Positions 10,142 through 32,000 of a stretch of DNA of 32,000 bases are shown here, piece after piece. The notes beneath the pieces were generated by a model. That model was not told the DNA's origin. It saw only the letters and a program-made list of their open reading frames with translations, and ran no database searches. Both the position numbers and the translations under genes were made by a program. Positions within the stretch are counted from its first letter, which is position 1. Each line of letters starts with the position of its first letter. The stretch is from NCBI GenBank assembly GCA_041659445.1, contig JBAZYG010000001.1, positions 454,530 to 486,529 of the forward strand, given 5' to 3'. This DNA is from Candidatus Saccharimonadota bacterium (lineage in GTDB: Archaea > Nanobdellota > Nanobdellia > Pacearchaeales > GW2011-AR1).

Positions 10142-11479
10142 TTAAAGTTTTAAAACACTTCCATTTGAAGCCAAGTGAGAATTCTCTCGAAATTTATAAC
10201 CTAACTCTTTTGCTAAATCTATCATTGGACTTTCTTGTTTAAGACTGCCATGTGCAGGAATTACATGCTCTGGTTTAAGAATTTCTAAAACTTCTCGCAA
10301 GTCTTCACGACTTCCGTGTCCATGAACATGAACATCAACTTGAATTTTAACTCCCAATGCTCTTAATCTTTTATCAAGTTTTTCTCTTGCAAGAATATTA
10401 ACTTCTGTTGGAATAACACTTGAAGAAAAAATCAAATTGTCTCCGGATTTAAAAGTAAAAGGGGTTTCACCTTTAACAATTCTATCTAATATGGAATTTT
10501 TTTCACCTTGATGCCCTGTACATACTACAAGATAATCTTCCCTATTTTTTTCCACTTCTTTTAAAAAAGAATTTATTTGTCTTCGGTATTTTAAAATTTT
10601 AATTTTATTTTTGAAATGACATTTCCCAACTTTTGAAGCACATTCAACATATCTTGAAAGACTTCTACCAATAAAAACAATTTTTCTTTTTGTTTTTAAT
10701 CCTAAATTTACAATATTATTTAATCTTTCAATATGTGATGAAAAAGTTGTTACAAAAAATGCAGATTTTTTATCTGTAACTTTTGAAAAAGCCTCTTCTA
10801 ACAAATGTCTTGCAATTATTTCTCCACCTGGTTTTTTTTCAACAGAAGAATAAAGCGAATCAATTACCAAAGCTTTCACACCCTGATTTCCTAATTCTTT
10901 TAATCTTTTATAATCTGGAGGATTTCCCAAAGTAGGATAATTATCAAATTTTAAATCCAATGCATAAAAAAATATCCCTTCAGGAGTATGAAGAGCAACA
11001 AAAGCACAATCAATTGTAGAATGTGTTGTATGGACAAATTCAAATTTTATTTCAGAAGACCCTTTCACAGAATAAATTTTTCCTGTTTCAGCTCTATTCA
11101 AAGAATTACTTATTCTTATTTTTGAATCTTCTAAAAGAGATTTTAAAACTTCTAATGTAAAAGATGTAGCATAAACTGGAACGTTTGGATATTCATGAAT
11201 TAAAAAAGGTAAACCACCGACGTGATCCAAATGTGCGTGACTTATAAAAATTGCTCTTACTTTATCTTTCCAACCTAATTCTTCTAAAACTCTGTCATCA
11301 GGTAAAGCTCCGACTCTTCGCAAATCTTTAATATTATATCTTTGCCCTTCTTCTTCTTGTAATTCAATTACTCCTGGTAAAAAAAACCCAGCATCAAAAA
11401 TAAAAACATCATCTTTGACTTTTACTGCAGTCATATTTTTACCAACTTCTTCAAATCCACCAATTGTACATATTTCCAT
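10142..11479 (-). CDS. rnj: Archaeal RNase J (metallo-beta-lactamase/beta-CASP, no KH domains)
   Basis: The N-terminus is IGGFEEVGKNMTAVKV...IFDAGF (GG..E.GKN is RNase J-like rather than the GRS of CPSF). Also present are ISHAHLDHVGG and the C-terminal HVHGHGSREDL. At 445 aa it matches the usual size. Confidence 0.8.
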   Translation of the reverse strand: MEICTIGGFEEVGKNMTAVKVKDDVFIFDAGFFLPGVIELQEEEGQRYNIKDLRRVGALPDDRVLEELGWKDKVRAIFISHAHLDHVGGLPFLIHEYPNVPVYATSFTLEVLKSLLEDSKIRISNSLNRAETGKIYSVKGSSEIKFEFVHTTHSTIDCAFVALHTPEGIFFYALDLKFDNYPTLGNPPDYKRLKELGNQGVKALVIDSLYSSVEKKPGGEIIARHLLEEAFSKVTDKKSAFFVTTFSSHIERLNNIVNLGLKTKRKIVFIGRSLSRYVECASKVGKCHFKNKIKILKYRRQINSFLKEVEKNREDYLVVCTGHQGEKNSILDRIVKGETPFTFKSGDNLIFSSSVIPTEVNILAREKLDKRLRALGVKIQVDVHVHGHGSREDLREVLEILKPEHVIPAHGSLKQESPMIDLAKELGYKFRENSHLASNGSVLKL

Positions 11480-11943: not shown

Positions 11944-12222
11944 ATGAAACCACTCAAACCATCAATGCGAGAAGACAAAAGATATTTATTAATTTCTGGA
12001 GAAAACCTTAAAGAAGATGTGGTAAAATCTATTAAAGAATTTATTGGAATTTTAGGATTAGCAAAATCAAATCTTTCTTTTATTGAATTAAAAAAAGATA
12101 AAGCCATAATTTGCGTTGATAGAAAATCTCTAAATCATGTTAAAGCTAGTTTTGCTATGTGTAATGAAAAAATTGATGTTTTAAAAGTTAGTGGAACATT
12201 GAAAGGATTAAAAACTAATTAA
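11944..12222 (+). CDS. rnp2: RNase P protein component 2 (Pop5)
   Basis: MKPLKPSMREDKRYLLI...IICVDRKSLNHVKASFAM...KVSGTLKGLK matches the archaeal Pop5 pattern (LPPtLReKKRYi...vSGTikrlk). I use the ATG at 11944, not the TTG at 11926. Confidence 0.85.
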   Translation: MKPLKPSMREDKRYLLISGENLKEDVVKSIKEFIGILGLAKSNLSFIELKKDKAIICVDRKSLNHVKASFAMCNEKIDVLKVSGTLKGLKTN

Positions 12223-15200
12223 AATATCCCCCATTCAGAAGAATATTCTTTACATAAATTATAATATTTCTTAAAGAATTCTCCAATTTTTGAGAAAATT
12301 TTCTTGAACAAACCTGGAGAATTGTCTTCTGAATTTGAATCTTGATTTGGTTGTTCTAATGAAAAATCACCCAAAACAATTTTTTCATCTAAAAGATTTT
12401 CTTGATCAACTACTACAAAAATTAAATTTCCATTAAATTTAGTATTATGCTTATCATAAGAAATTTTTAGCACTTCATTTTCATTATTTAATTTAAAGAA
12501 ATAATTTTCATGAATGCCTATGGAAAAAAATTGTGAATCTATAGAAAGATTTACAAAATTTTTATTTATATCTAATATTTTTAAAATATAAGTATTATTT
12601 TCATAAAATAATTTTAAAGTATCATATTTAGAAACTTTTTGTTTTAATTCTTGGGTTGTTAAATTTAAATTTATTTTATTAAATGGCAACCCGCTCCCAC
12701 CAGAAGTTGTTGTGACATCTTCACTACTTGAAGGAGTTTCCTCAGAAGAATAATTACTAAAAGATATTACATCAAAAATAAAAGTTCCACCAGTATAAGA
12801 AACTTCTGTACAATCTGAACAAAAAACTCCGTCTTTTAAAGGTCTTGGATTTGTAAAAGTTAAATCATATAAAGTTATTCTTGCAGAAGCATTCAAAAAA
12901 GTTAAATTACTAGAATTTACGTATGCACTATTTAACCCTATAATTATATAATCATCTAAATTTGCACCTTCTTCAAGATTTACATTTTCTGAAAAATTAA
13001 TTTTACCATAAGGATAATTATCAATTACAAAATTTGAAATTTCTGAAACATCTAAATCACTTAAATTAGTTGAATTTGTTGTAAAACCTTGAAACCTAAA
13101 AACAGATAAGTTGTTTGTTGAACTAAAATAAACTTCTGAATCATTATTTGTGCAATTTATACTCCAATTATAATGACCAATTGCAAGATTATTCAATGTG
13201 AAATTTTGAGTAGTATCTTCGGTAATAGAAATATTTGTTGAATTCAAAATATTGTTTAAAATTAAAGAACAATTTTCAATATTTACTCCTGAGTCTGAAA
13301 CATTATAAGAAAAAGTTACATTTCCGTCAGAGTCTCCTTTTTTATTTCCTGGAGAAATTAATGTTACAACTGAAACATCTGCAACATTTGTAACATTTAC
13401 CAAAAAACTATTTACTCCTGTTAAAAATAAAGAATCATATGCTGTGCAAGTAACATTTACTGAACCATAAAAATTATTTAAAGCTGTTATATTTAGCAAT
13501 TTTGTTTCATTGTTAACTTCTGAAGTAAAATTTGTTTCATTATCTGAGCAAGTCCAATTAATTAAAGAATCAGCATCATCTATATCTAAAACATAATTTG
13601 ATAAATTAATTGTAGAATTTGAATTACCTTCTTCTAATGTCATTAAATCTAAAGAAGAAAAATCTATATTTGGTGCAGAATTAGAAACAGTAGTATTTGT
13701 TAAATTTACAGCTGTGGAGTTTGCTGTTCCATCTCCTGTCCAAACTTCAAGAGTAATATTATCCCCAGCATTATATTCAGAAGAATCAAATGTCGCAATT
13801 AAAGTGTTTGTATTGTTCGTCGCTGTTTGAGATTGAATTGTTGTATTTGGAGTGTTATTAACATACATTCTTACATAACCTGTTAAAGTATCTCCTAAAT
13901 CAGGGTCTGTGATTGTTAAATTTACTAACAAACTAGTATTTGTGTAAACTGTTGCTGGACTTGTTGCATTTGCTATAATTGTTGGTGCAGTGTTTAAAAC
14001 TGGAGCTAAATCTTTTAAAGGAAGATAGTCAATATTTCCAGTTGTGCAATTTGAACCTGCAATACAAGATGCATTTGTTTCAATATCATAAGCCAAATCA
14101 CAAACACCATTAGCATTACTATCTGCACAAGTTTCAGAATAACCTGTTCCGTCGGGTTTTGCCCAAAAATTCCCACCATAAGCTAAATCCCCGACGATAT
14201 TTCTTAAACTAGAATTAAAAGTAGTATTGAAAAGATTATCTGCACCAGTGCTACCAAATTTTACATTCAAAGAATTATTAAAGAAATTATTGTAAAAATA
14301 ATTACTATCTGTTCCAAGTTGATTAAAAGTTACTCCTGCTGTTGTAGCATTAGTTAAATTATTATTATAAATTTCACTTCCAATACTTGTTGAATCAATA
14401 TAAATGTTAACTGCATTATTATAAATACTTGAATTGTAAATCCGAATATAATCTGGACTTGATTGTAAATAAAACCCATTTCCAGTATTACCATAAACTG
14501 TGCAATTTGAAAAATTAGAATAATTGCTAGTATAATATAAATGAAACCCGTGTGCTGTAGAATTAATAATAAAATTCTCAAATAAATTTCTATCCAACCC
14601 TTGCCTTAAATAAATTCCTGTAGTTAACGCAGAAGTAGAAGTAATATTAGAAAAATATGAATCTTGAACAAAATCAAAATACATAGAATATTGAAAATCA
14701 TTAAATTTACAATTTTTTACAGTTAGATTTTTATACTCACTTCCTGCAGCAGTATCTGCAACAACACCATACAAAACTGCATTCCCTCCATCAACTAAAT
14801 GATTTTGACAATCTAAAGTTACATTACTTGAACTAATAGTAAAACATGTTGAACCAGAATCTGTAACGTCTGCTGTTAATAGGTATTCTCCTGGAAGATT
14901 TAAAGTAGCACATCCAGAAATTTCTCCCCCTCTTTGGACAATTGTGAAAGAATCCATATTTCCCGACGATAAAGTTGAAGTAAAAGTATAATTTATTGAA
15001 TTTGTAGAAACTAAAGAACCTGAAGAATTGTAAACATCATGGTTTACTCCAATACTTTCAAAACTTATTGTTATATTTGTTAAATTATGATCATAATTGT
15101 TTGTCATATTACAAGTGTAATTTCCCTGTGAATTTTGTGAACAATTTACTTTTAAGTTCTGCCAATCTGTGATTCCGTCTGCAGTATAACCTGTTCTATT

Positions 15201-16415
15201 TGAATCATGCCCAATTAAAGTATAATCTCCTGAACCTGTTCCAAAATCAAATGCATATAAATTTCCGTCGTCAGTTACAACATAAATATTTCCTTGAGCA
15301 ATAGAAGTGTAACCAAAAACATCTTCATTGACATGATATTTCCAAATAAAATTTCCATTTGTTTCGTTTATAGCATAAATGTAACCATCTCCGCCTGTAG
15401 CAGCGTCGCAACTAGCACATATCACATTAAAAAAAATCATTCCATTAGAAATTGCAGGTTGATTATAAATTGCATCAGTACCGTCGGCACCAGAATCATA
15501 AAATATCCATTTTTCAGTTCCATTCAAATAATAAGAATGTACTAAATCTGTGGTTGTTACTGTAGTTGTTTTTCCAATGAAAAAAACATCGTCGTGAACT
15601 GAAGGAGTACTTATAGTGTTAAAAGAGGCAGTATCCCAAACAACTGAACCATTTTCAAGATACCTTGATAATAAAAGTGGTCCTCCTGCAGAAGAACCAA
15701 TAAAAATTTGATTGTTATATAAAATTGGAGAACTATCCCAAAAAGTTCCTTCATCTCTTGCCCAAAGTTGAGTTCCTGTTGTAATATTATATGCTGCTAA
15801 ATCTTCATTTGTTTCAGAATTTGATGTTGCAATAATTAAATATTCTCCATACAATAAAGGCTCTGCAGCAATTGCGGCTGTTCCAACTCCAATAGTGTCA
15901 TTCCATATGTAAGCTCCTGTTGTTCTATTTAAAACAACAAATGTATTTGAAGCATATGAAATCGCAATTAAATAATTTTCATCTAATGCAACACCTTGAG
16001 AAAATTTCATTGCTGTTGGACTTGTATAATTCCAAATTTGAATTCCTGTTGTAGAATTTATTGCCCACACATTATTAAAAGAATTATAAATAGTTCCGTT
16101 GTAATAAACAGGCCCTCCGAAACCAGTCAATCCTGCTCCAGAATTTCCAACATCAAATTCCCATATAATACTTCCATTTGTTGCATTAACTGCATAAGTT
16201 TTATTATCTCGTCGTGAATTTACAAACAAAGTATCGTTTGCATAAACTGCAATTGCCTGTTCGTCATAAGTTCCTGTAACATTTGCTGTCCAAAGCAATT
16301 CATGACCATAAGTAGTTCTAGATGTATTCAAATCAACTAAAACAGAAGTTGCAGAAATACTTGGAAGAATTAACAAAGAAATTAATAAAACAAAAAAGAA
16401 GAAATTTTTTTTCAT
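12219..16415 (-). CDS. Giant secreted surface (glyco)protein: signal peptide, PQQ-like beta-propeller, parallel beta-helix region, Ig-like repeats
   Basis: The signal peptide is MKKNFFFFVLLISLLILPSISA|TS. Seven to eight propeller blades carry x-N-x-T-[TN]-G-x-x-x-W (YAVNATNGSIIWEF, WAINSTTGIQIWNY, LNRTTGAYIWND, YNITTGTQLWAR, INETNGNFIWKY...). PbH1-like repeats occur around NCKFNDF...GFHLYYTSNYSNFSNCTVYGNTGNGFYL. Repeated beta-rich modules follow. There are dozens of N-x-S/T sequons and no C-terminal TM helix. Confidence 0.85.
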   Translation of the reverse strand: MKKNFFFFVLLISLLILPSISATSVLVDLNTSRTTYGHELLWTANVTGTYDEQAIAVYANDTLFVNSRRDNKTYAVNATNGSIIWEFDVGNSGAGLTGFGGPVYYNGTIYNSFNNVWAINSTTGIQIWNYTSPTAMKFSQGVALDENYLIAISYASNTFVVLNRTTGAYIWNDTIGVGTAAIAAEPLLYGEYLIIATSNSETNEDLAAYNITTGTQLWARDEGTFWDSSPILYNNQIFIGSSAGGPLLLSRYLENGSVVWDTASFNTISTPSVHDDVFFIGKTTTVTTTDLVHSYYLNGTEKWIFYDSGADGTDAIYNQPAISNGMIFFNVICASCDAATGGDGYIYAINETNGNFIWKYHVNEDVFGYTSIAQGNIYVVTDDGNLYAFDFGTGSGDYTLIGHDSNRTGYTADGITDWQNLKVNCSQNSQGNYTCNMTNNYDHNLTNITISFESIGVNHDVYNSSGSLVSTNSINYTFTSTLSSGNMDSFTIVQRGGEISGCATLNLPGEYLLTADVTDSGSTCFTISSSNVTLDCQNHLVDGGNAVLYGVVADTAAGSEYKNLTVKNCKFNDFQYSMYFDFVQDSYFSNITSTSALTTGIYLRQGLDRNLFENFIINSTAHGFHLYYTSNYSNFSNCTVYGNTGNGFYLQSSPDYIRIYNSSIYNNAVNIYIDSTSIGSEIYNNNLTNATTAGVTFNQLGTDSNYFYNNFFNNSLNVKFGSTGADNLFNTTFNSSLRNIVGDLAYGGNFWAKPDGTGYSETCADSNANGVCDLAYDIETNASCIAGSNCTTGNIDYLPLKDLAPVLNTAPTIIANATSPATVYTNTSLLVNLTITDPDLGDTLTGYVRMYVNNTPNTTIQSQTATNNTNTLIATFDSSEYNAGDNITLEVWTGDGTANSTAVNLTNTTVSNSAPNIDFSSLDLMTLEEGNSNSTINLSNYVLDIDDADSLINWTCSDNETNFTSEVNNETKLLNITALNNFYGSVNVTCTAYDSLFLTGVNSFLVNVTNVADVSVVTLISPGNKKGDSDGNVTFSYNVSDSGVNIENCSLILNNILNSTNISITEDTTQNFTLNNLAIGHYNWSINCTNNDSEVYFSSTNNLSVFRFQGFTTNSTNLSDLDVSEISNFVIDNYPYGKINFSENVNLEEGANLDDYIIIGLNSAYVNSSNLTFLNASARITLYDLTFTNPRPLKDGVFCSDCTEVSYTGGTFIFDVISFSNYSSEETPSSSEDVTTTSGGSGLPFNKINLNLTTQELKQKVSKYDTLKLFYENNTYILKILDINKNFVNLSIDSQFFSIGIHENYFFKLNNENEVLKISYDKHNTKFNGNLIFVVVDQENLLDEKIVLGDFSLEQPNQDSNSEDNSPGLFKKIFSKIGEFFKKYYNLCKEYSSEWGIF

Positions 16416-17297: not shown

Positions 17298-18020
17298 ATG
17301 GAAATGCCTATAGATATGCAACACCAACAAATGGGGTATGATAGAACTGCTACAATGTTTACTCCTGAAGGACATTTATTACAGGTAGAGTATGCTGAAA
17401 AAGCAGTAAGACTTGGAAGTTCAAGTATTGGAATGGTTTGCTCTGATGGGGTTTTTATACTTTCTGATAAAAGAAATGAAGACAAATTAATTGTTCCAAG
17501 TTCTGCGAACAAAATTCATGAAATTGATGAACACATAATTGTAAGTATCGCAGGAATTGTTTCAGATGCAAGAGTTTTAATTGACAGGTCCCAAGTTTTA
17601 GCACAGCAACATCGAGTAACTTATGATTCTCCTATTGAAATTGAAACAGTTATAAAAGAAATTTCAAACTTAAAACAACAATTTAGCCAGTATGGTGGTG
17701 CAAGACCTTTTGGTGTTTCATTAATGCTTGCTGGAGTTTACAACAAAAAATTCCAACTTTACACAAGTTATGTAACTGGAAATTATTTTGAATATTATGC
17801 AAATGCTATTGGAGAAAATGACGAAAAAATAAGAGATAAATTAAAAGAAGTATATAAAAAAGATTTAACAATTAAAAAAGGCGTGAAAATTGCTTTAGAT
17901 ATTTTTAAAGAAATTCAAGGACAAAAATTTGATATAGACAGGTTTGAACTTGTTTATCTTTCAAAAGAACATGAAAAAATGCAAAGACTTGAAGGAAATA
18001 AAATTAACGAATTAAAATGA
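17298..18020 (+). CDS. psmA: Proteasome alpha subunit
   Basis: QMGYDRTATMFTPEGHLLQVEYAEKAV is the canonical alpha N-terminus. I moved the start from the track's 17169 to the ATG at 17298 (MEMPIDMQHQQMGYD). It has a TATA-like ttattaaatt about 25 nt upstream and the TAAAATG context. Confidence 0.92.
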   Translation: MEMPIDMQHQQMGYDRTATMFTPEGHLLQVEYAEKAVRLGSSSIGMVCSDGVFILSDKRNEDKLIVPSSANKIHEIDEHIIVSIAGIVSDARVLIDRSQVLAQQHRVTYDSPIEIETVIKEISNLKQQFSQYGGARPFGVSLMLAGVYNKKFQLYTSYVTGNYFEYYANAIGENDEKIRDKLKEVYKKDLTIKKGVKIALDIFKEIQGQKFDIDRFELVYLSKEHEKMQRLEGNKINELK

Positions 18021-18181
18021 ACGAATTAAGAGACAAATTAAAAAAATTAGGAATTGATTATGAAAGTTTTGAAAGAAGAACAAGAATTTATGAATTAGCA
18101 AGAGAAGCAGAAGAAAGAACAAGATTAGAAGAAATGAATAAACTCGAGGAGGATATTATTATACAATACTTAAAAAATTAA
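18017..18181 (+). CDS. Unannotated 54-aa helical ORF (below the 60-aa track cut-off)
   Basis: My translation is MNELRDKLKKLGIDYESFERRTRIYELAREAEERTRLEEMNKLEEDIIIQYLKN. It has an ATGA overlap with the psmA stop, and its TAA is 1 nt before the next ATG. It exactly fills the gap between the two genes. Confidence 0.6.
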   Translation: MNELRDKLKKLGIDYESFERRTRIYELAREAEERTRLEEMNKLEEDIIIQYLKN

Positions 18182-18182
18182 A

Positions 18183-18446
18183 ATGACAATCAAAAAATAT
18201 CAATTTAATAATTATGCCTATGGAACATTTTGCAGTGAATTCAGGGAAAATATTGTAGAGAAAAGAGAATTTGATAAAGGATTTTACAACTATAGTATTT
18301 TTAATATAAATAATACCACTGTAACTTTAATGAAAATGGGAACAAATTCAAAAAAAGTTTTAACAATAGGATTGAATGAAAAAGAAATAGATAAAACTAT
18401 TAAATTAATTAAATCAAAAGGATTTCAATTAGAGGAAATAATTTAA
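18183..18446 (+). CDS. Exosome-operon interleaved small protein, paralogue A (87 aa, unknown family)
   Basis: Homologous to ORFs 19832 and 20833: MTxKxY N-terminus, SEF patch, and C-terminal TIGLNEKEIDKTIKLIKSKGFQLEE. It has 1-nt TAA-A-ATG junctions on both sides. Confidence 0.8.
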   Translation: MTIKKYQFNNYAYGTFCSEFRENIVEKREFDKGFYNYSIFNINNTTVTLMKMGTNSKKVLTIGLNEKEIDKTIKLIKSKGFQLEEII

Positions 18447-18447
18447 A

Positions 18448-19119
18448 ATGACTAACACTACTGCGAGAATAAAGAAAAACGGAATTAATTTTGAAATTCT
18501 TGTAGACATGGACAACGCATTAAAATTCAGAAAAGGTGAAATTAATTTTATCAACGCTGAAGGAGACAAAATATTTTCAGATGTAAAAAAAGGTACTGCT
18601 TCATCAAAAGATGATTTAGAAATTGCTTTTAACACTACTGATACTGATGAAATTGCAAAAGTGATTGTAAAACACGGAGACGTTTTAGTTAATCAAGAAC
18701 ATAGAGACGAGGAAAAAGAAAAAAGAATAAGACAAGTTGTTGATTTTTTATCAAAAAATGCTATAGACCCTAAGACAGGACATCCACATTCTCCGAATAG
18801 AATAAGAGATGCACTAGAACAAGCACATGTTAACATAAAAAATGTTCCTATTGAAAATCAAATTTCAGAAATTTTAGAACACATTGCAAAACTAATTCCA
18901 ATAAAAATTGAAACAAAGAAAATAAAAGTTAGAATTCCTGCAATACAAACTGGAAAAGCTTATGGAATTGTAAGCCAATATAAAGGAAGCGAAAAGTGGC
19001 TTGAAAACGGAGATTTAGAAACTATTGTTGAAATTCCTGCTGGCATGATTTTGGATTTTTATGATAAATTAAACTCAATAACACACGGAAGTGCCTTAAC
19101 AGAGGAAATAAAACAATAA
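18448..19119 (+). CDS. sbds: SBDS (Shwachman-Bodian-Diamond) family ribosome maturation protein
   Basis: ARIKKNGINFEILVD... at the N-terminus, 223 aa, in the canonical position after psmA in the archaeal exosome superoperon. Confidence 0.85.
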   Translation: MTNTTARIKKNGINFEILVDMDNALKFRKGEINFINAEGDKIFSDVKKGTASSKDDLEIAFNTTDTDEIAKVIVKHGDVLVNQEHRDEEKEKRIRQVVDFLSKNAIDPKTGHPHSPNRIRDALEQAHVNIKNVPIENQISEILEHIAKLIPIKIETKKIKVRIPAIQTGKAYGIVSQYKGSEKWLENGDLETIVEIPAGMILDFYDKLNSITHGSALTEEIKQ

Positions 19120-19128
19120 AAACGAAAG

Positions 19129-19139
19129 ACATATAAACT
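19129..19139 (+). promoter_or_regulatory. Candidate internal TATA box in the only real gap of the operon
   Basis: acatataaact is centred 25 nt upstream of the rrp4 ATG (19159), within the 39-nt SBDS-rrp4 spacer. Confidence 0.35.
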
Positions 19140-19158
19140 AAAAATAAGACAAACTAAA

Positions 19159-19830
19159 ATGACAGAAAATAAAAGAAGAGCAGCAATACCTGGAGAGATA
19201 ATCGCCGAAGGCGAAGAATATTTACCTGGAGAAAATACTGAAAAAAGAAATAATAAAATTTATTCTTTGAGATATGGATTAATTGAAGAATCAAACAACC
19301 TTGTAAGAATAATTCCTTTATCAGGAATTTACGAACCTCGACGAGGAAATGTAGTTATAGGAAAAGTAGAATTAGTTACATTCAATGGATGGGTTATTGA
19401 TATTGGAACCTCTCAAAATGCTTTTTTGAGTTTATCTGAAGTACCAAGATTTGTTAACAAAGATGAAATAGACGAAGTAATGGACATTGGAGATATGGTT
19501 ATGATAAAAATTGTTTCATCAAACAAAAGAGGAATTGATGCTACAATAAAAGGAAGAGGACTTGGAAAAATAGAAGAAGGAATTATTTTTGATATTAACT
19601 CACATAAAGTTCCAAGAGTAATAGGAAAAGAAGGAAGCATGATTAAATTAATAAAAGACGAGACAAATGCAAATGTCAGCGTCGGACAAAATGGTAAAAT
19701 CTGGATAAAAGGAGACAAAGTTGAAGAAGAACTTTTAGCAAAAAAAGCAATAATGTTCATATCAGAAAGATCTTTTATTTCTGGATTAACTGAAGAAGTA
19801 ATTAAATGGTTCAACGAGAGGAAAAAATAA
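19159..19830 (+). CDS. rrp4: Exosome cap subunit Rrp4 (N-terminal domain + S1 + KH)
   Basis: PGEIIAEGEEYLPGENT, an S1-like VIGKVELVTFNGWVIDIG, and the KH segment VPRVIGKEGSMIKLIKDETNANVSVGQNGKIWIKG. Confidence 0.9.
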   Translation: MTENKRRAAIPGEIIAEGEEYLPGENTEKRNNKIYSLRYGLIEESNNLVRIIPLSGIYEPRRGNVVIGKVELVTFNGWVIDIGTSQNAFLSLSEVPRFVNKDEIDEVMDIGDMVMIKIVSSNKRGIDATIKGRGLGKIEEGIIFDINSHKVPRVIGKEGSMIKLIKDETNANVSVGQNGKIWIKGDKVEEELLAKKAIMFISERSFISGLTEEVIKWFNERKK

Positions 19831-19831
19831 A

Positions 19832-20119
19832 ATGACAACAAAAAATTATAATATCTTTTTAAAAGAAGACTTGAATTTGAAGCAGTGTTATAGCGAATTT
19901 TTTGGAAATTACAGGGATTACATAAAAAAAATTGGAGATGGCTTTACTACCTATGATTTTAAAGATACTGCAATAATTTTATTTGGAAACTTAACAGACA
20001 TAAAACAAATTAGAACAAAGGGCGTTAATAATTTGCATTTAATTGGAACAGAAGATAATATTAAAAAAGTTGTTAAAAGTATAAAATCAAAAGGATTTTC
20101 ATTGGAGGAAATAAATTAA
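19832..20119 (+). CDS. Exosome-operon interleaved small protein, paralogue B (95 aa)
   Basis: Starts MTTKNY, with YSEF and LIGTEDNIKKVVKSIKSKGFSLEE. It is flanked by a perfect 17-nt direct repeat at 19828-19844 and 20117-20133. Confidence 0.8.
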   Translation: MTTKNYNIFLKEDLNLKQCYSEFFGNYRDYIKKIGDGFTTYDFKDTAIILFGNLTDIKQIRTKGVNNLHLIGTEDNIKKVVKSIKSKGFSLEEIN

Positions 20120-20120
20120 A

Positions 20121-20831
20121 ATGACAACAAAAACATTCAAAAGACCAGACGGAAGAAAACCTGAAGAATTAAGACCAATAAAAGCAAAAGTTGGAATTAT
20201 CCCAAATGCCGACGGAAGTGCAATGTATCAATCAGGAGACACAATCGCGATTGCTGCAGTTTATGGTCCAAGAAAAATGCATCCGCAACATCAGCAAGAT
20301 CCGAAAAAAGCTCAATTAAGATGCACTTACAATATGTTAAGTTTCTCAGTTAATGATAGAATTAAACCTGGAACTAGTAGAAGAAGCACTGAAATTAGTA
20401 AAATAACTGAATGGGCTTTAGAACCTGTTTTAATTTTAGACAAATTCCCAAATATGGTTGTAGATGTTTTTATCCAAATAACTCAAGCAGACGCAGGAAC
20501 AAGATGCGCAGGAATAAATGCAGCTTCAATGGCTCTTGCTCATGCAGGAATTCCAATGAAAAATCTTATAACTAGTGTTTCTGTTGGAAAATTAGATAAA
20601 AATTTAGTTGTTGATTTAACTAAAGAAGAAGAAGATTTTGAAGAAGGAGAAGGACCTACAGACATTCCTGTTTCAATGACTCCAGAAGGAGAAATAACAC
20701 ATTTACAATTAGACGGAAAAATAAGTCCAACTCAATTAAAAGAAGCAATTGACATGGCAAAAAAAGCTTGTAATCAAATTTATGAAATTCAAAAAGAAGC
20801 TTTAACAAAATCAATAGAGGAAAAAGGATAA
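20121..20831 (+). CDS. rrp41: Exosome RNase PH-ring subunit Rrp41
   Basis: RPDGRKPEELRPIKAKVGIIPNADGSAMYQSGDTIAIAAVYGPR and QADAGTRCAGINAASMALAHAGIPM are RNase PH domain motifs. Confidence 0.93.
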   Translation: MTTKTFKRPDGRKPEELRPIKAKVGIIPNADGSAMYQSGDTIAIAAVYGPRKMHPQHQQDPKKAQLRCTYNMLSFSVNDRIKPGTSRRSTEISKITEWALEPVLILDKFPNMVVDVFIQITQADAGTRCAGINAASMALAHAGIPMKNLITSVSVGKLDKNLVVDLTKEEEDFEEGEGPTDIPVSMTPEGEITHLQLDGKISPTQLKEAIDMAKKACNQIYEIQKEALTKSIEEKG

Positions 20832-20832
20832 A

Positions 20833-21117
20833 ATGACATATAGAGAATATATCTTAGGTTCAAAAGAGAAAAATTTAGAAGAAACTTATGAAGAATTTTA
20901 TGATACTTACTGGAAGAATAGGCATGCACATTATCATCTTTATAACGATGCTTTATTAGAAGTTTATGATATAAAAGATGTTTCAGTATTAGTGAATCAA
21001 GGTGTAAATACCTTGAATTTGGTAAATCTTAAGATGATTGGATTAGAAAATCTAATTGACGAAGTTGAAAAAGATATAATCAAAAATAAATTTAAATTAA
21101 AAAGAGTAACTAAATAA
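20833..21117 (+). CDS. Exosome-operon interleaved small protein, paralogue C (94 aa, most diverged)
   Basis: Starts MTYREY, with YEEF and MIGLENLIDEVEKDIIKNKFKLKR. It is flanked by ATAAAATGACA at 20828-20838 and 21114-21124. Confidence 0.75.
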   Translation: MTYREYILGSKEKNLEETYEEFYDTYWKNRHAHYHLYNDALLEVYDIKDVSVLVNQGVNTLNLVNLKMIGLENLIDEVEKDIIKNKFKLKRVTK

Positions 21118-21118
21118 A

Positions 21119-21928
21119 ATGACAAACGGAAGCACAACACCATCAACAAATAGAGAAAGAATAAATGAATACTTAAAAAATGGAAAAAGATTTGACGAGA
21201 GAAAACCAGAAGAGTTTAGAGAAATAATTATTGAAAAAAATGTTTCAAAAAAAGCAGAAGGTTCTGTTAAAGTAAAAATGGGAAACACTGAAGTTTTAGT
21301 TGGAATCAAAATGGGAGTTTCAGAACCATATCCTGATTCTTTGGATGAAGGTGTTTTAATGACAACTGCAGAATTATTGCCTTTAAGTTCTGAGAGATTT
21401 GAAAACGGACCTCCAAAATTTCCAGCAATAGAATTAGGAAGAGTTATTGACAGAATTTTAAGAGAAAGTAAATTTATTGATTTAAAAAAATTATGCATTG
21501 AAAAAGGTAAGAAGGTTTGGACTGTTTTTGTAGACATATATTCTTTAAATGACGACGGAAATTTACTAGATGCTGCTGGAATCGGAGCTGTTGTTGCATT
21601 AAGAAATGCGGTACTTCCAAAATATGATGAAAAAGAAGGTAAAATTAATTATGATGAACCTTCAAAAACAAAATTACCTTTAAGTAAAAGCACACCAATC
21701 TCAATAACAATTCATAAAATTGGAAATTCTTTGCTTACAGATCCAACAAGAGAAGAAGAAGACATTAGTGAAACAAGAGTAACTATTGGAATGATGGATA
21801 ATTCAATTTCATCAATGCAAAAAGGAGAATCACAAATTCTAACAATTGATGAAACTAAAAAAATAATTGACATGGCTGAAAAAGTTCATGAAAAGGTTTT
21901 AAAAAGTATAAACAAATATTTAGATTAA
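21119..21928 (+). CDS. rrp42: Exosome RNase PH-ring subunit Rrp42
   Basis: GKRFDERKPEEFREIIIEKNVSKKAEGSVKVKMGNTEVLVGIK. At 269 aa it follows rrp41. Confidence 0.9.
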   Translation: MTNGSTTPSTNRERINEYLKNGKRFDERKPEEFREIIIEKNVSKKAEGSVKVKMGNTEVLVGIKMGVSEPYPDSLDEGVLMTTAELLPLSSERFENGPPKFPAIELGRVIDRILRESKFIDLKKLCIEKGKKVWTVFVDIYSLNDDGNLLDAAGIGAVVALRNAVLPKYDEKEGKINYDEPSKTKLPLSKSTPISITIHKIGNSLLTDPTREEEDISETRVTIGMMDNSISSMQKGESQILTIDETKKIIDMAEKVHEKVLKSINKYLD

Positions 21929-21929
21929 A

Positions 21930-22310
21930 ATGCAAGCAGAAAAATTTACAAAATACGAAAAAGCAAGAATTCTTGGGGCAAGGGCTTTACAAATTGCAAT
22001 GAATGCTCCTTTATTAATTAAAATCAGCAATGAAGATTTGGAAAAAATAAAATTTGATGCGTTGAAAATTGCAGAAATTGAATTAAGTTCTGATGTTTTA
22101 CCAATTTCAATTAAAAAACCATTTCCACAGAAAAAAGAAGAACAACTAAAGAGACCTAAACCTGTAATAATTACTGAAGAAAAGAAAGAAGAAACTGAAT
22201 CTGAAGAAGAAAAAGAAATAATCGAAGAAGGCGAAATCATGGAATTAGCAGAACCTGAAGAAGAAAAAGAAGATTTTGCCGAAGATGATTCTAGTGGTGG
22301 GGAAGAATAA
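21930..22310 (+). CDS. rpoK: RNA polymerase subunit K (Rpb6 homologue) with a ~60-aa acidic C-terminal extension
   Basis: TKYEKARILGARALQIAMNAPLLI...LPISIKK is the RpoK core (about residues 1-64). It is followed by EEKKEETESEEEKEIIEEGEIMELAEPEEEKEDFAEDDSSGGEE. Confidence 0.85.
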   Translation: MQAEKFTKYEKARILGARALQIAMNAPLLIKISNEDLEKIKFDALKIAEIELSSDVLPISIKKPFPQKKEEQLKRPKPVIITEEKKEETESEEEKEIIEEGEIMELAEPEEEKEDFAEDDSSGGEE

Positions 22311-27758: not shown

Positions 27759-27786
27759 TATATTTTAGAACAATTATTTTTATAAA
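27759..27786 (+). promoter_or_regulatory. Repeated promoter/operator element, copy 1 (28 nt, identical to 29189-29216)
   Basis: tatattttagaacaattatttttataaa ends exactly 22 nt before the ATG at 27808. Confidence 0.7.
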
Positions 27787-27807
27787 GCTTCTAAATATTA
27801 AACAAAT

Positions 27808-27999
27808 ATGAAAAAGAGTATTGACAAAAAACTGATAAAAAACTCAAATCAACAGCTTAAAGATCTTATGGATGATGACATTCCCACAGTTAAAAATTAC
27901 AAAACAATAAAAGAATTGGAAGAAAGAAGTGGAAGAGGATATTGGGGAAATGCCACAACAGGATATATTTATGATGAACAATATAAAGATGTCCCTTAA
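27808..27999 (+). CDS. Hypothetical 63-aa protein
   Basis: ORF placed 22 nt after the repeated TATA-containing element. No family recognised. Confidence 0.5.
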   Translation: MKKSIDKKLIKNSNQQLKDLMDDDIPTVKNYKTIKELEERSGRGYWGNATTGYIYDEQYKDVP

Positions 28000-28035
28000 T
28001 TAATCTAATTTAAAAATATTAGTTCAAACTATCTA

Positions 28036-28059
28036 TTCTAGGACAATAATATTTATAAT
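28036..28059 (+). promoter_or_regulatory. Repeated promoter/operator element, degenerate copy (19/24 identical)
   Basis: ttctaggacaataatatttataat compares with ttttagaacaattatttttataaa. It also ends exactly 22 nt before its ATG (28081). Confidence 0.55.
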
Positions 28060-28080
28060 GGGTTTGTCTATGAATAAATT

Positions 28081-28326
28081 ATGGAATTTACTTTTGAGTA
28101 CAGTAAAGGAAAAACAAAAGTGTACCATGGAATTGGTGAGAAAAAAGAAAAAATTTCAATTAAAGCTTTAGGTTGGGATACCTCTTCTGATGTTTCTGTT
28201 GCTGTAAAAGAAATGTATGAAACTTTTAATTCAAGAATGATTACCAATTCTAAAGAACCATGTAATAAAAACAGAAACTTAATAGCAAAACTTACTTTAG
28301 AAATAAATGCTACTTTAAAAAAATAA
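28081..28326 (+). CDS. Hypothetical 81-aa protein
   Basis: Preferred over the antisense ORF 28068-28361 because of the correctly spaced promoter element and non-shadow composition. Confidence 0.5.
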   Translation: MEFTFEYSKGKTKVYHGIGEKKEKISIKALGWDTSSDVSVAVKEMYETFNSRMITNSKEPCNKNRNLIAKLTLEINATLKK

Positions 28327-29188: not shown

Positions 29189-29216
29189 TATATTTTAGAA
29201 CAATTATTTTTATAAA
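29189..29216. promoter_or_regulatory. Repeated promoter/operator element, copy 2; its TATA box sits midway between two divergent ATGs
   Basis: Identical 28-mer, ending 22 nt before the ATG at 29238. The near-palindromic tttttataaa (29207-29216) is also about 24 nt from the minus-strand ATG at 29187. Confidence 0.7.
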
Positions 29217-29237
29217 CATTGATATTAATAAAAAACT

Positions 29238-29489
29238 ATGGAAAAAAAAATAAGATATTATGATATAATTCTTAATTTAAAAGGTGAACAAGAACATTTA
29301 TACATTCAAGTTCAAGAAGATAAAACAATTTGTGTTTCTAAAAGTTCAACAGATAAGATAAAAGCAATTCCTACTTCAAAAGAAATTACAAACAGAGAAT
29401 ATGTTGAAGCATTAAATAATATGACTGAAGGTCGTAGTGAATTTAAACCTTTTAATTTAGAATCACGAATAGATAAGATGAAAGAATAA
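29238..29489 (+). CDS. Hypothetical 83-aa protein
   Basis: Correctly spaced after the repeated element and preferred over the antisense ORF 29312-29530. Confidence 0.5.
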   Translation: MEKKIRYYDIILNLKGEQEHLYIQVQEDKTICVSKSSTDKIKAIPTSKEITNREYVEALNNMTEGRSEFKPFNLESRIDKMKE

Positions 29490-30776: not shown

Positions 30777-31058
30777 GAAGTATTTTTGTGATATTGATTA
30801 ATTAAGATGAGTGCCTTAAGAAAATTCACATATTCAGAATTTAAGGTATGATGTATGTAGAATTGACTTAGTTAACTCATCATTTTTCTTCACAATATTT
30901 TATATTTAGAAAAATTATGAGAATGTTACAGTTGGAGTTTTCAGCCAATAGAAGGAGTTTGTGTGAAGTGGTTTGTTTTTCTTACAAATGACAAACTGCG
31001 CAATTGATTTTCGTTATTAATTAATAAAAAACCGACGAGAATATGAAATTGTTTTTAA

Positions 31059-32000
31059 ATCCAGTTGATCCTGCTGGCGGCTGCGGCTCTCTGGTTTGTA
31101 CTTAGACATGCAAGTCTTTTAGTTTCTTCGGAAGTTAAAGGCGAACTGCTCAGTAACACGTAGCTAATCTAACCTTAAGTCAAGGATACCCTCGGGAAAC
31201 TGAGATTAATACTTGATAGGAGATATGCCCTGGAATGACTTATCTCTAAAATTCGAGCTTAAGGATGAGGCTGCGGCGGATTAGGTTGTTGGCGGGGTAA
31301 ATGCCCACCAAGCCGATGATCCGTAAGGGCTCTTAGCGGAGAGGCCCTGAGAGGGAATCTGAGACACTATTCCCAGCCCTACGGGGTGCAGCAGTTAAGA
31401 ATCATCTGCAATACACGCAAGTGTGACAGTTTGAACCAGAGTGCTTTTCAATCGAAAAGCTTTTCTGCACTGTAAAAAGGTGTAGGAATAAGGACTGGGT
31501 AAGACGGGTGCCAGCCGCCGCGGTAATACCCGCGGTCCAAGTCGCAGCCATTTTTATTGGGTCTAAAACATCCGTAGCTTGCTTTATAAGTCCCTTGTGA
31601 AATTTTGCATCTCAAATGTAGAGCGTGCAAGGGGTACTGTAAAGCTAGAGACTGGGAGACGTAAGAAGTACGTTCAAAGTAATAGTAAAATATGTTAATC
31701 TTGGACGGACTAACAATAGCGAAGGCATCTTACGAGAACAGTTCTGACAGTAAGGGATGAAGGCTAGGGGCGCAAAACGGATTAGATACCCGTGTAGTCC
31801 TAGCAGTAAACACTGCACACTAAACATCAGTATCTCTTCGAGAGGTATTGGTGCTGCAGGGAAGCCGAAGAGTGTGCTACCTGGGAAGTATAGTCGCAAG
31901 GCCGAAACTTAAAGGAATTGGCGGGGAGACACTACAACGAGTGACGCGTGCGGTTCAATTAGATTCCACACCGTGAACCTCACCAGGAGCGACAGCAGAA
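31059..32000 (+). rRNA. rrs: 16S rRNA gene, 5' ~940 nt (runs off the window end)
   Basis: Conserved archaeal SSU landmarks are atccagttgatcctgc at 31059, gtgccagccgccgcggtaatac at 31508, ggattagatacccgtgtagtcc at 31779 and aaacttaaaggaattggcgggg at 31905. Their spacing is normal, so no insertion or intron is evident. GC content is far higher than in the flanks. Confidence 0.95.

Follow-up and report, generated by a model that had tools for sequence, protein, structure and literature searches.

Do the direct repeats that bracket three small genes in an archaeal exosome operon record the entry of these genes, or do they belong to the operon itself? The question is raised by a 32,000-nt stretch of contig JBAZYG010000001.1 (the whole stretch is called the window below), in which a co-directional operon at 17.3–22.3 kb runs psmA-orf54-A-SBDS-Rrp4-B-Rrp41-C-Rrp42-RpoK and holds the small genes A, B and C. 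In a preliminary description of the window, the repeats around these genes were taken for the footprint of a target-site duplication or an unequal crossover, and each small gene was thought to have entered by duplication of the stop–start junction together with the first codons of the downstream gene, in the manner of a cassette. Taking the evidence below together, we consider it likely that the repeats are the common stop–start junction of the operon, that the extra 8 nt of identity around B are coincidental, and that the small genes are old paralogues.

Stop–start junctions of the exosome operon

An exact sequence check of the three repeat pairs found all of them where they had first been described. 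B is flanked by a perfect 17-nt repeat, TAAAATGACAACAAAAA, which is exact at 19828–19844 and 20117–20133 and ends on both sides in a mismatch (A/T before, A/C after). B and Rrp41 do both begin MTTK, and both genes open with TAAAATGACAACAAAA. The genes of the operon and their junction elements are listed here in window coordinates.

17298..18020, +, psmA (proteasome alpha subunit), first operon gene; NCBIfam NF003075, E = 3e-79; TAAAATG at its start
18017..18181, +, orf54, 54 amino acids (aa); start overlaps the psmA stop (ATGA)
18178..18187, +, TTAAAATGAC junction, orf54 stop / A start
18183..18446, +, paralogue A, 87 aa, psmA>SBDS slot; family hidden Markov model (HMM) E = 1.5e-20
18443..18452, +, TTAAAATGAC junction, A stop / SBDS start
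18448..19119, +, SBDS ribosome assembly factor; TIGR00291, E = 3e-49
19159..19830, +, Rrp4 exosome cap subunit; NF003181, E = 1e-62
19828..19844, +, left 17-nt copy: Rrp4 stop TAA, one A, ATG ACA ACA AAA A of B
19832..20119, +, paralogue B, 95 aa, Rrp4>Rrp41 slot, MTTKNY start; family HMM E = 1.7e-28; AlphaFold2 predicted local distance difference test (pLDDT) 91.7
20104..20108, +, GGAGG Shine-Dalgarno-like element in the last codons of B (LEEI), 12 nt ahead of the Rrp41 ATG
20117..20133, +, right 17-nt copy: B stop TAA, one A, ATG ACA ACA AAA A of Rrp41
20121..20831, +, Rrp41 exosome RNase PH subunit, MTTKTF start; TIGR02065, E = 6e-84
20828..20838, +, ATAAAATGACA junction, Rrp41 stop / C start
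20833..21117, +, paralogue C, 94 aa, Rrp41>Rrp42 slot; family HMM E = 2.1e-23
21114..21124, +, ATAAAATGACA junction, C stop / Rrp42 start
21119..21928, +, Rrp42 exosome subunit; NF003282, E = 2e-86
21930..22310, +, RpoK (RNA polymerase subunit K/Rpo6), last operon gene, start reads TAAAATGCA; NF002208, E = 5e-20
18432..18435, 19818..19821 and 20817..20820, +, GAGG elements before SBDS, B and C, respectively

The junction motif is a property of the whole operon. TAAAATG stands ahead of all ten consecutive genes from psmA to RpoK and occurs 22 times in the window, where 17 occurrences are the start of an open reading frame (ORF) of at least 50 aa, 7 of them outside the operon. The longer TAAAATGAC is found seven times in 32 kb against 1.18 expected, a number reached in none of 100 shuffles; we judged this random-sequence null to be the wrong one, since all seven matches are consecutive starts in one operon, namely those of A, SBDS, Rrp4, B, Rrp41, C and Rrp42. 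The start of Rrp4 carries the motif (19155–19163) and yet brackets no paralogue; it lies 39 nt after the SBDS stop, and the TAA within it is distinct from the stop codon of the upstream gene. Stop and start are separated by +1 nt at seven junctions, by −4 nt at psmA/orf54 and by 39 nt at SBDS>Rrp4 only, and GAGG or GGAGG is found 10–12 nt upstream of four of the ten operon starts, within the final codons of the preceding gene; the other six starts lack it. When the nine junctions from orf54 to RpoK were matched all against all, the B bracket was the longest with 17 nt; pairs that bracket nothing share 15 nt (A start / Rrp41 start) and 14 nt (B start / Rrp42 start), and the brackets of A (10 nt) and C (11 nt) fall within the bulk of such pairs.

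For comparison, we used 80 loci with the same operon order and 65–83% Rrp41 identity, from Pacearchaeota / Woesearchaeota-type DPANN genome bins (single loci carry L numbers below). At 369 starts of conserved genes in these operons, positions −3 to −1 are 83–89% A, TAAAATG is present in 43% and TAAAATGAC in 14%, and the most frequent second codon is ACA; the junction is therefore a lineage-wide start context. In the closest relative, L086, TAAAATGA stands at six of six junctions, one of which belongs to an unrelated 74-aa ORF. Since all genes carry the junction, inserted genes and others alike are bracketed by it.

In the AT-rich genome studied here, which is Pacearchaeota-like (DPANN), the genes are joined head to tail in the form ...(GAGG)...TAA-A-ATG-ACN, usually with threonine as second codon and in four cases with the GAGG. 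We propose that this junction may serve translational coupling by termination–reinitiation, on top of a start context that would be A-rich throughout the genome.

Around B, the match reaches 17 nt because B and Rrp41, which are unrelated proteins, both begin MTTK. The aligned N-terminus of the A/B/C family reads M[TVA][TA][KR][ND]Y, of which the MTTKNY start of B is a typical case. Its first 18 nt, ATGACAACAAAAAATTAT (MTTKNY), recur identically in L098, where the downstream gene is SBDS, and members beginning MTTK(H)YNI stand ahead of SBDS also in L010, L081, L086 and L095. Rrp41 orthologues, for their part, often begin MTTK(T/E)F, also without a gene upstream: the MTTK start is present in 13 of 75 orthologues, nine of the 13 at tight junctions, and in L086, L034 and L055 Rrp41 begins with ATGACAACAAAAACATTC, 18 nt identical in DNA to the window, with nothing inserted upstream. 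Both 18-nt starts thus occur apart in other genomes, and the two halves of the match were therefore inherited independently. To judge from these occurrences, the starts of B and Rrp41 are both ancestral at the DNA level. Codon use in the window is narrow, with ACA and ACT making up 53% and 43% of the threonine codons and AAA 92% of the lysine codons, so that, given MTTK in both proteins, the probability of identical 9 nt of codons is 0.19; a third window gene (7878) opens with ATGACAACAACA. Conserved N-termini and AT-biased codon use at this probability account for the match that had been read as a duplication scar. The first codons of family members do not systematically copy the downstream gene (L010, L086, L098, L099, L104), and the suggested entry by copying of the junction and the first downstream codons finds no support in the start of B, which is intrinsic to the family and found before SBDS in L098. 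The extra 8 nt would accordingly reflect a coincidence of descent between an inherited MTTKNY in B and a lineage-typical MTTKTF in Rrp41, both of them written with the dominant codons ACA and AAA.

If the repeats marked insertions, small genes in relatives should be bracketed more strongly than their neighbours. Among 46 inserted ORFs in the relatives, the median bracket is 6 nt, as it is in 870 control pairs from the same loci; for these ORFs the one-sided Mann-Whitney test yields p = 0.04, a value driven by two family members with 15 nt, and a within-locus rank test on 14 family members detects no excess bracket identity (mean rank-p 0.50, Fisher combined p = 0.51). Some family members lack flanking repeats altogether: brackets measure 3–4 nt only in L104a, L106a and L099, the last being the slot-mate of C, 6–9 nt in L010b, L083, L104b and L106b, and 3–15 nt across 11 further family members. 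With the same junction on genes that were not inserted and a rank test at p = 0.51, the footprint proposal is not supported. Two observations had been named beforehand as refuting it, small genes in relatives that lack flanking repeats and a 17-nt match expected from shared N-termini plus AT bias, and both were made.

Empty sites were to carry a single junction copy, and this is indeed seen: the Rrp4>Rrp41 junction of L086 reads GAGAGGAAAAAATAAAATGACAACAAAAACATTC, with one 17-mer. The single copy does not discriminate, because a junction shared by all genes predicts the same. L086 is the closest available operon (Rrp41 86% identical) and has its B-like gene in another slot; the nearest Rrp41 among 5.8 billion proteins is 84–85% identical. 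In L108, the other closest operon, the psmA>SBDS, SBDS>Rrp4 and Rrp4>Rrp41 slots, which are those covered by its contig, are empty and show ATGA overlaps or a short spacer. Since the paralogues are old, no fresh event is visible.

Several points weigh against reading the repeats as ordinary junctions. The B bracket remains the longest junction match in the window, and among family members in general the bracket is the longest match of its locus in 5 of 14 instances. The junctions are also unusually uniform here: TAAAATGAC is carried by four of the five conserved downstream genes, compared with at most two of five in the 80 reference loci, and the start of Rrp42 has it in the window and in 0 of 78 relatives; such uniformity could come from homogenisation between junctions. 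The empty site of L086 equals the left flank of the window, one 17-mer and the right flank, and an insertion or deletion through the repeat would leave such a site as well. Finally, the +1 spacing differs from the −4/−1 overlaps studied experimentally, and coupling is putative here.

The small genes and their slots

A, B and C are distant paralogues with 27–34% identity (BLASTP B–A, E = 5e-8, 34%; B–C, E = 2e-7, 28%). An exhaustive profile search of 1.8 billion proteins gave 32 representative clusters; a word-indexed homologue search with B returned only B itself, and a degenerate DNA pattern for KSKGF.LEEI hit 16 loci, eight with family members and eight by chance. Members have about 87–118 aa and share an N-terminal M-x-x-[KR]-x-Y, the motifs Y..F...Y, [YF]D[IF]N and NL.[LI]IG, and a C-terminal IKSKGF.LEEI. 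All three window proteins fit the family (HMM E = 1.5e-20 to 1.7e-28), C with a degenerate C-terminal motif (KNKFKLKRV). AlphaFold2 predicts a confident beta-alpha-beta-beta-beta-alpha-beta-alpha-beta fold (pLDDT 91.7), for which a sequence profile search of the PDB reached at best E = 0.06 and Foldseek against the PDB and BFVD at best E = 0.1, with template modelling (TM) scores of ~0.4–0.5 to generic alpha/beta folds only. A, B and C matched nothing significant in Pfam, NCBIfam, PHROGs and PADLOC; the best PHROG match (E = 1.6e-4) covers a partial stretch of an entry of unknown function, and PADLOC gave none. A NIL domain was considered for B and rejected, the match being weak (E = 0.003) and absent from the other members. 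By these searches, the family is previously undescribed and unannotated, has ~95 residues and is confined to Pacearchaeota-like archaea; a literature search found no paper on small genes in Pacearchaeota exosome operons.

Genomic context could be recovered for about 25 members, nearly all of which lie inside the exosome operon, in four slots. The psmA>SBDS slot is the most frequent; SBDS>Rrp4 holds members in L083, L104 and L106, Rrp4>Rrp41 holds B, L010b, L101 and a member on a JGI contig, and Rrp41>Rrp42 holds C and L099/L100. One or two members are found at other places (L102; in the case of L097, behind a gene that is not part of the operon). The nearest relatives of A, L082 and L084 (57–61% identity), share its psmA>SBDS slot, and the nearest relative of C, L099 (44%), shares its Rrp41>Rrp42 slot; those of B, L010a and L086 (55–56%), are both in the psmA>SBDS slot. 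A rough neighbour-joining tree likewise places A with same-slot members, C with L099 and B with L010a and L086, and contains two further subfamilies that mix slots. Each paralogue is closer to a member in another genome (44–61%) than to its co-residents, and the paralogy is therefore old. A foreign origin by composition was ruled out, as G+C at third codon positions is 0.16–0.21 in A, B and C compared with 0.14–0.17 in their neighbours and thus matches them.

Judged by gene context, A, B and C would most likely be expressed together with the exosome / SBDS / proteasome machinery and act as its accessory proteins. As the family is confined to Pacearchaeota-like archaea and lies almost always within the exosome / SBDS / proteasome operon, it is a candidate lineage-specific cofactor, with RNA processing or ribosome biogenesis in minimal-genome organisms as its candidate role.

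Two further observations concern the family. The 3' ends of A and B (18378–18452 and 20051–20125) share 76% DNA identity over 75 nt, far above the remainder of the genes, in a block that spans IKSKGF.LEEI, the stop codon and the next ATGAC; GGAGG in the LEE codons doubles as a Shine-Dalgarno-like element for the downstream gene. In addition, a 65-aa ORF adjoins family members in L104 (1625–1822), L106 (4299–4496) and L105 (175–372); its start, M-x-(E/A)-K-x-Y-E-[ILF], resembles the family N-terminus, and it may be a truncated relative of the A/B/C family.

In the relatives, the five junctions between the conserved genes are either tight (mostly +1 or −4) or hold 150–700 nt, the larger gaps being found, in operon order, in 17/63, 20/69, 16/73, 13/78 and 7/77 genomes. 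No junction is empty throughout the relatives, and none is filled in all of them. The slots are filled by small ORFs of 53–165 aa from many unrelated families, all in the direction of the operon, and in 37 of 56 filled slots both ends are tight (−12 to +8 nt). The cassette-like behaviour ascribed to the small genes therefore stands over evolutionary time, as seen from the four slots, the slot switches inside subfamilies and the variable occupancy, and finds no support in the repeats that were offered as evidence of insertion. With each junction of a highly conserved, tightly packed operon filled in roughly 10–30% of related genomes, small ORFs turn over rapidly here, and the operon lends itself well to studies of the gain and loss of new small genes in essential operons.

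Among the individual slots, tandem paralogue pairs were observed in L034 (107 and 108 aa) and L074 (108 and 122 aa). Other families recur in Rrp41>Rrp42 (L038, L043, L052) and in psmA>SBDS (L011, L059); one of these recurring families is a coiled coil ending in ..NYYQN..IIEQNNEIIKYL, and a second is common to L011 and L059. The most occupied example, a contig of JGI metagenome 3300072015, has ten small ORFs over all five junctions plus one after RpoK; its Rrp4>Rrp41 slot contains three ORFs side by side (107, 108 and 108 aa), the middle of which alone is known to belong to the A/B/C family.

Alternative origins of the repeats

The alternative that survives best, and which we nevertheless rate as unlikely, is a shuffling of gene units, in which the junctions (9–17 nt exact, ~25 nt similar) would supply the microhomology at which unequal crossover or illegitimate recombination takes place. 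Such events would duplicate or delete entire gene units, or shift them from one slot to another, with ORF-precise ends; the 17-mer would be substrate or product of such exchanges, and B could have landed before Rrp41 because both start with TAAAATGACAACAAAA. Slot switches in subfamilies speak for this: the nearest relatives of B sit in psmA>SBDS, the slot of L083 differs from that of L104a/L106a, and L097, L101 and L107 lie in three different contexts. The tandem pairs in single slots (L034, L074) and the JGI slot with three adjacent ORFs point the same way, as does the prevalence of slots that are tight at both ends with co-oriented occupants (37/56), but selection for compaction and coupling would be expected to produce tight ends just as well. 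In L086, the starts of the B-like gene and of Rrp41, 1.6 kb apart, share AAAATAAAATGAC plus ACAAAA, so that a substrate for unequal crossover exists, and the empty site there, with its single 17-mer, fits as well. However, the marginal excess of bracket identity (p = 0.04) is gone once matches are ranked within each locus (p = 0.51), the brackets of many family members and of most other inserted ORFs go no further than the consensus, and the paralogues are old, the closest genome represented among the 5.8 billion proteins having only 84–85% Rrp41 identity. Much the same doubt, or slightly more, attaches to the idea that the uniform TAAAATGAC junctions are themselves recombination sites of an integrase-free cassette system in the DPANN exosome operon, with the 17-mer as one footprint; if true, single-gene units with ORF-precise ends, from the A/B/C family as well as from dozens of unrelated small ORFs, would undergo duplication, deletion and transfer between slots within a translationally coupled housekeeping operon.

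Concerted evolution appears far less probable. Here gene conversion would have homogenised neighbouring junctions and thereby produced both the 17-nt identity and the uniformity of TAAAATGAC, as suggested by its presence at seven of nine consecutive junctions and at the start of Rrp42, where 0 of 78 relatives have it. Yet both 18-nt starts are unchanged in other genomes in which the partner is absent or elsewhere (L098; L086, L034, L055), and therefore no conversion is needed; tracts of 9–17 nt are very short, and the starts of B and Rrp41 were, as shown in part, identical before the two genes became neighbours.

True target-site duplications by a transposase- or integrase-driven mobile cassette, which would explain direct repeats on both sides of each small gene and the single copy at the L086 empty site, are refuted as far as sequence analysis goes and are hardly credible, given that the repeat has no fixed length (10, 11 and 17 nt here, 3–15 nt in relatives), covers the first four codons of B itself, which are family-conserved and present before other genes, recurs as a motif ahead of non-inserted genes, and as a neutral scar would have decayed between paralogues only 27–34% identical. 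No terminal inverted repeats are common to the ends of A, B and C, and a scan of all but a few small ORFs of the window detected no transposase or integrase domain; on these two results and the variable repeat length, a transposon was rejected. Had the repeats been insertion scars, they would have pointed to a new kind of mobile cassette. As ordinary stop–start junctions were found, the insertion-scar claim is not to be carried forward.

Surroundings of the operon and comparison with known systems

The window has a G+C content of 27%. The six conserved genes of the operon match NCBIfam models with E = 5e-20 to 2e-86; the scores of psmA and Rrp41 lie slightly under the curated equivalog cut-offs, and psmA clears the subfamily model. 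The reading frame of psmA stays open upstream as far as 17169. For orf54, which occupies the psmA>SBDS slot together with A, Pfam, NCBIfam and BLASTP gave no homologue or family match. The SBDS>Rrp4 spacer (19120–19158, 39 nt) is the sole non-tight junction of the operon, measures 38–66 nt in many relatives and may contain an internal promoter for the exosome genes. No Rfam RNA family was found inside the operon.

Other genes of the window encode a proteasome beta subunit, Rad50, Mre11, pyruvate:ferredoxin oxidoreductase subunits, an RNase J-like nuclease, a 1398-aa surface protein, enolase, ribosomal protein S2 and a LigD phosphoesterase, and the 3' end is the 5' part of an archaeal 16S rRNA gene (31058–32000), cut at the window edge. 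The 1398-aa secreted/surface protein (12219–16415, − strand) combines a PQQ-like beta-propeller with NosD-type repeats, and its gene sits between the RNase J-like gene (10142–11479) and the operon; in contig L108, the distance from the RNase J-like gene to the operon is only ~0.7 kb, with a Pop5-like ORF in between. A 57-nt direct repeat is present in three copies (27759–27815, 28032–28088, 29189–29245) with 67–82% identity. Each copy terminates at an ATG, those at 28081 and 29238 opening ORFs of 81 and 83 aa, and contains TTTTTATAAA ~25 nt ahead of it; the repeat looks like a common promoter or 5' region of small paralogous genes.

Among known systems, the junctions invite comparison first with translationally coupled gene pairs. 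Coupling by termination–reinitiation depends on genes that overlap or are separated by very little, and the subunits of complexes are enriched for it (Huber et al. 2019 PMC6728339, 2023 PMC10666635). The operon resembles such pairs in that co-directional genes of multi-subunit machinery have stop and start within a few nucleotides, at some junctions with a Shine-Dalgarno-like element in the last codons of the upstream gene; it differs in its dominant spacing, which is +1 (TAA-A-ATG) in place of the −4 (ATGA) or −1 overlaps of the experiments.

The target-site duplications of transposons and miniature inverted-repeat transposable elements (MITEs) are similar as far as short direct repeats surround a segment absent from a relative and a single copy marks the empty site, and different in that the repeats here vary in length, are common to all genes and overlap conserved coding sequence of the insert. 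Integron cassettes are likewise promoterless, co-oriented single-ORF units whose presence varies between genomes. In contrast to them, the units described here are interleaved with essential housekeeping genes and not arrayed, their ends are plain stop–start junctions with no imperfect palindrome or attC-like site, and the scanned ORFs of the window contain no integrase domain. Morons and free-standing homing-endonuclease genes are also small variable genes placed precisely between conserved syntenic genes, whereas A, B and C belong to a cellular housekeeping operon and have neither a nuclease nor another recognisable domain, and no PHROG or BFVD match.

The setting itself is familiar. A conserved archaeal exosome / proteasome gene neighbourhood was reportedly described by Koonin, Wolf and Aravind in 2001 and receives mention in PMC2588523, and the window agrees with this superoperon in its co-directional psmA-SBDS-Rrp4-Rrp41-Rrp42-RpoK order, followed by enolase and ribosomal protein S2, as do its relatives in the Pop5-like gene upstream. 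What sets the present lineage apart from it are the variable small ORFs at the junctions, up to ten per operon, with one family represented in the window by three paralogues.

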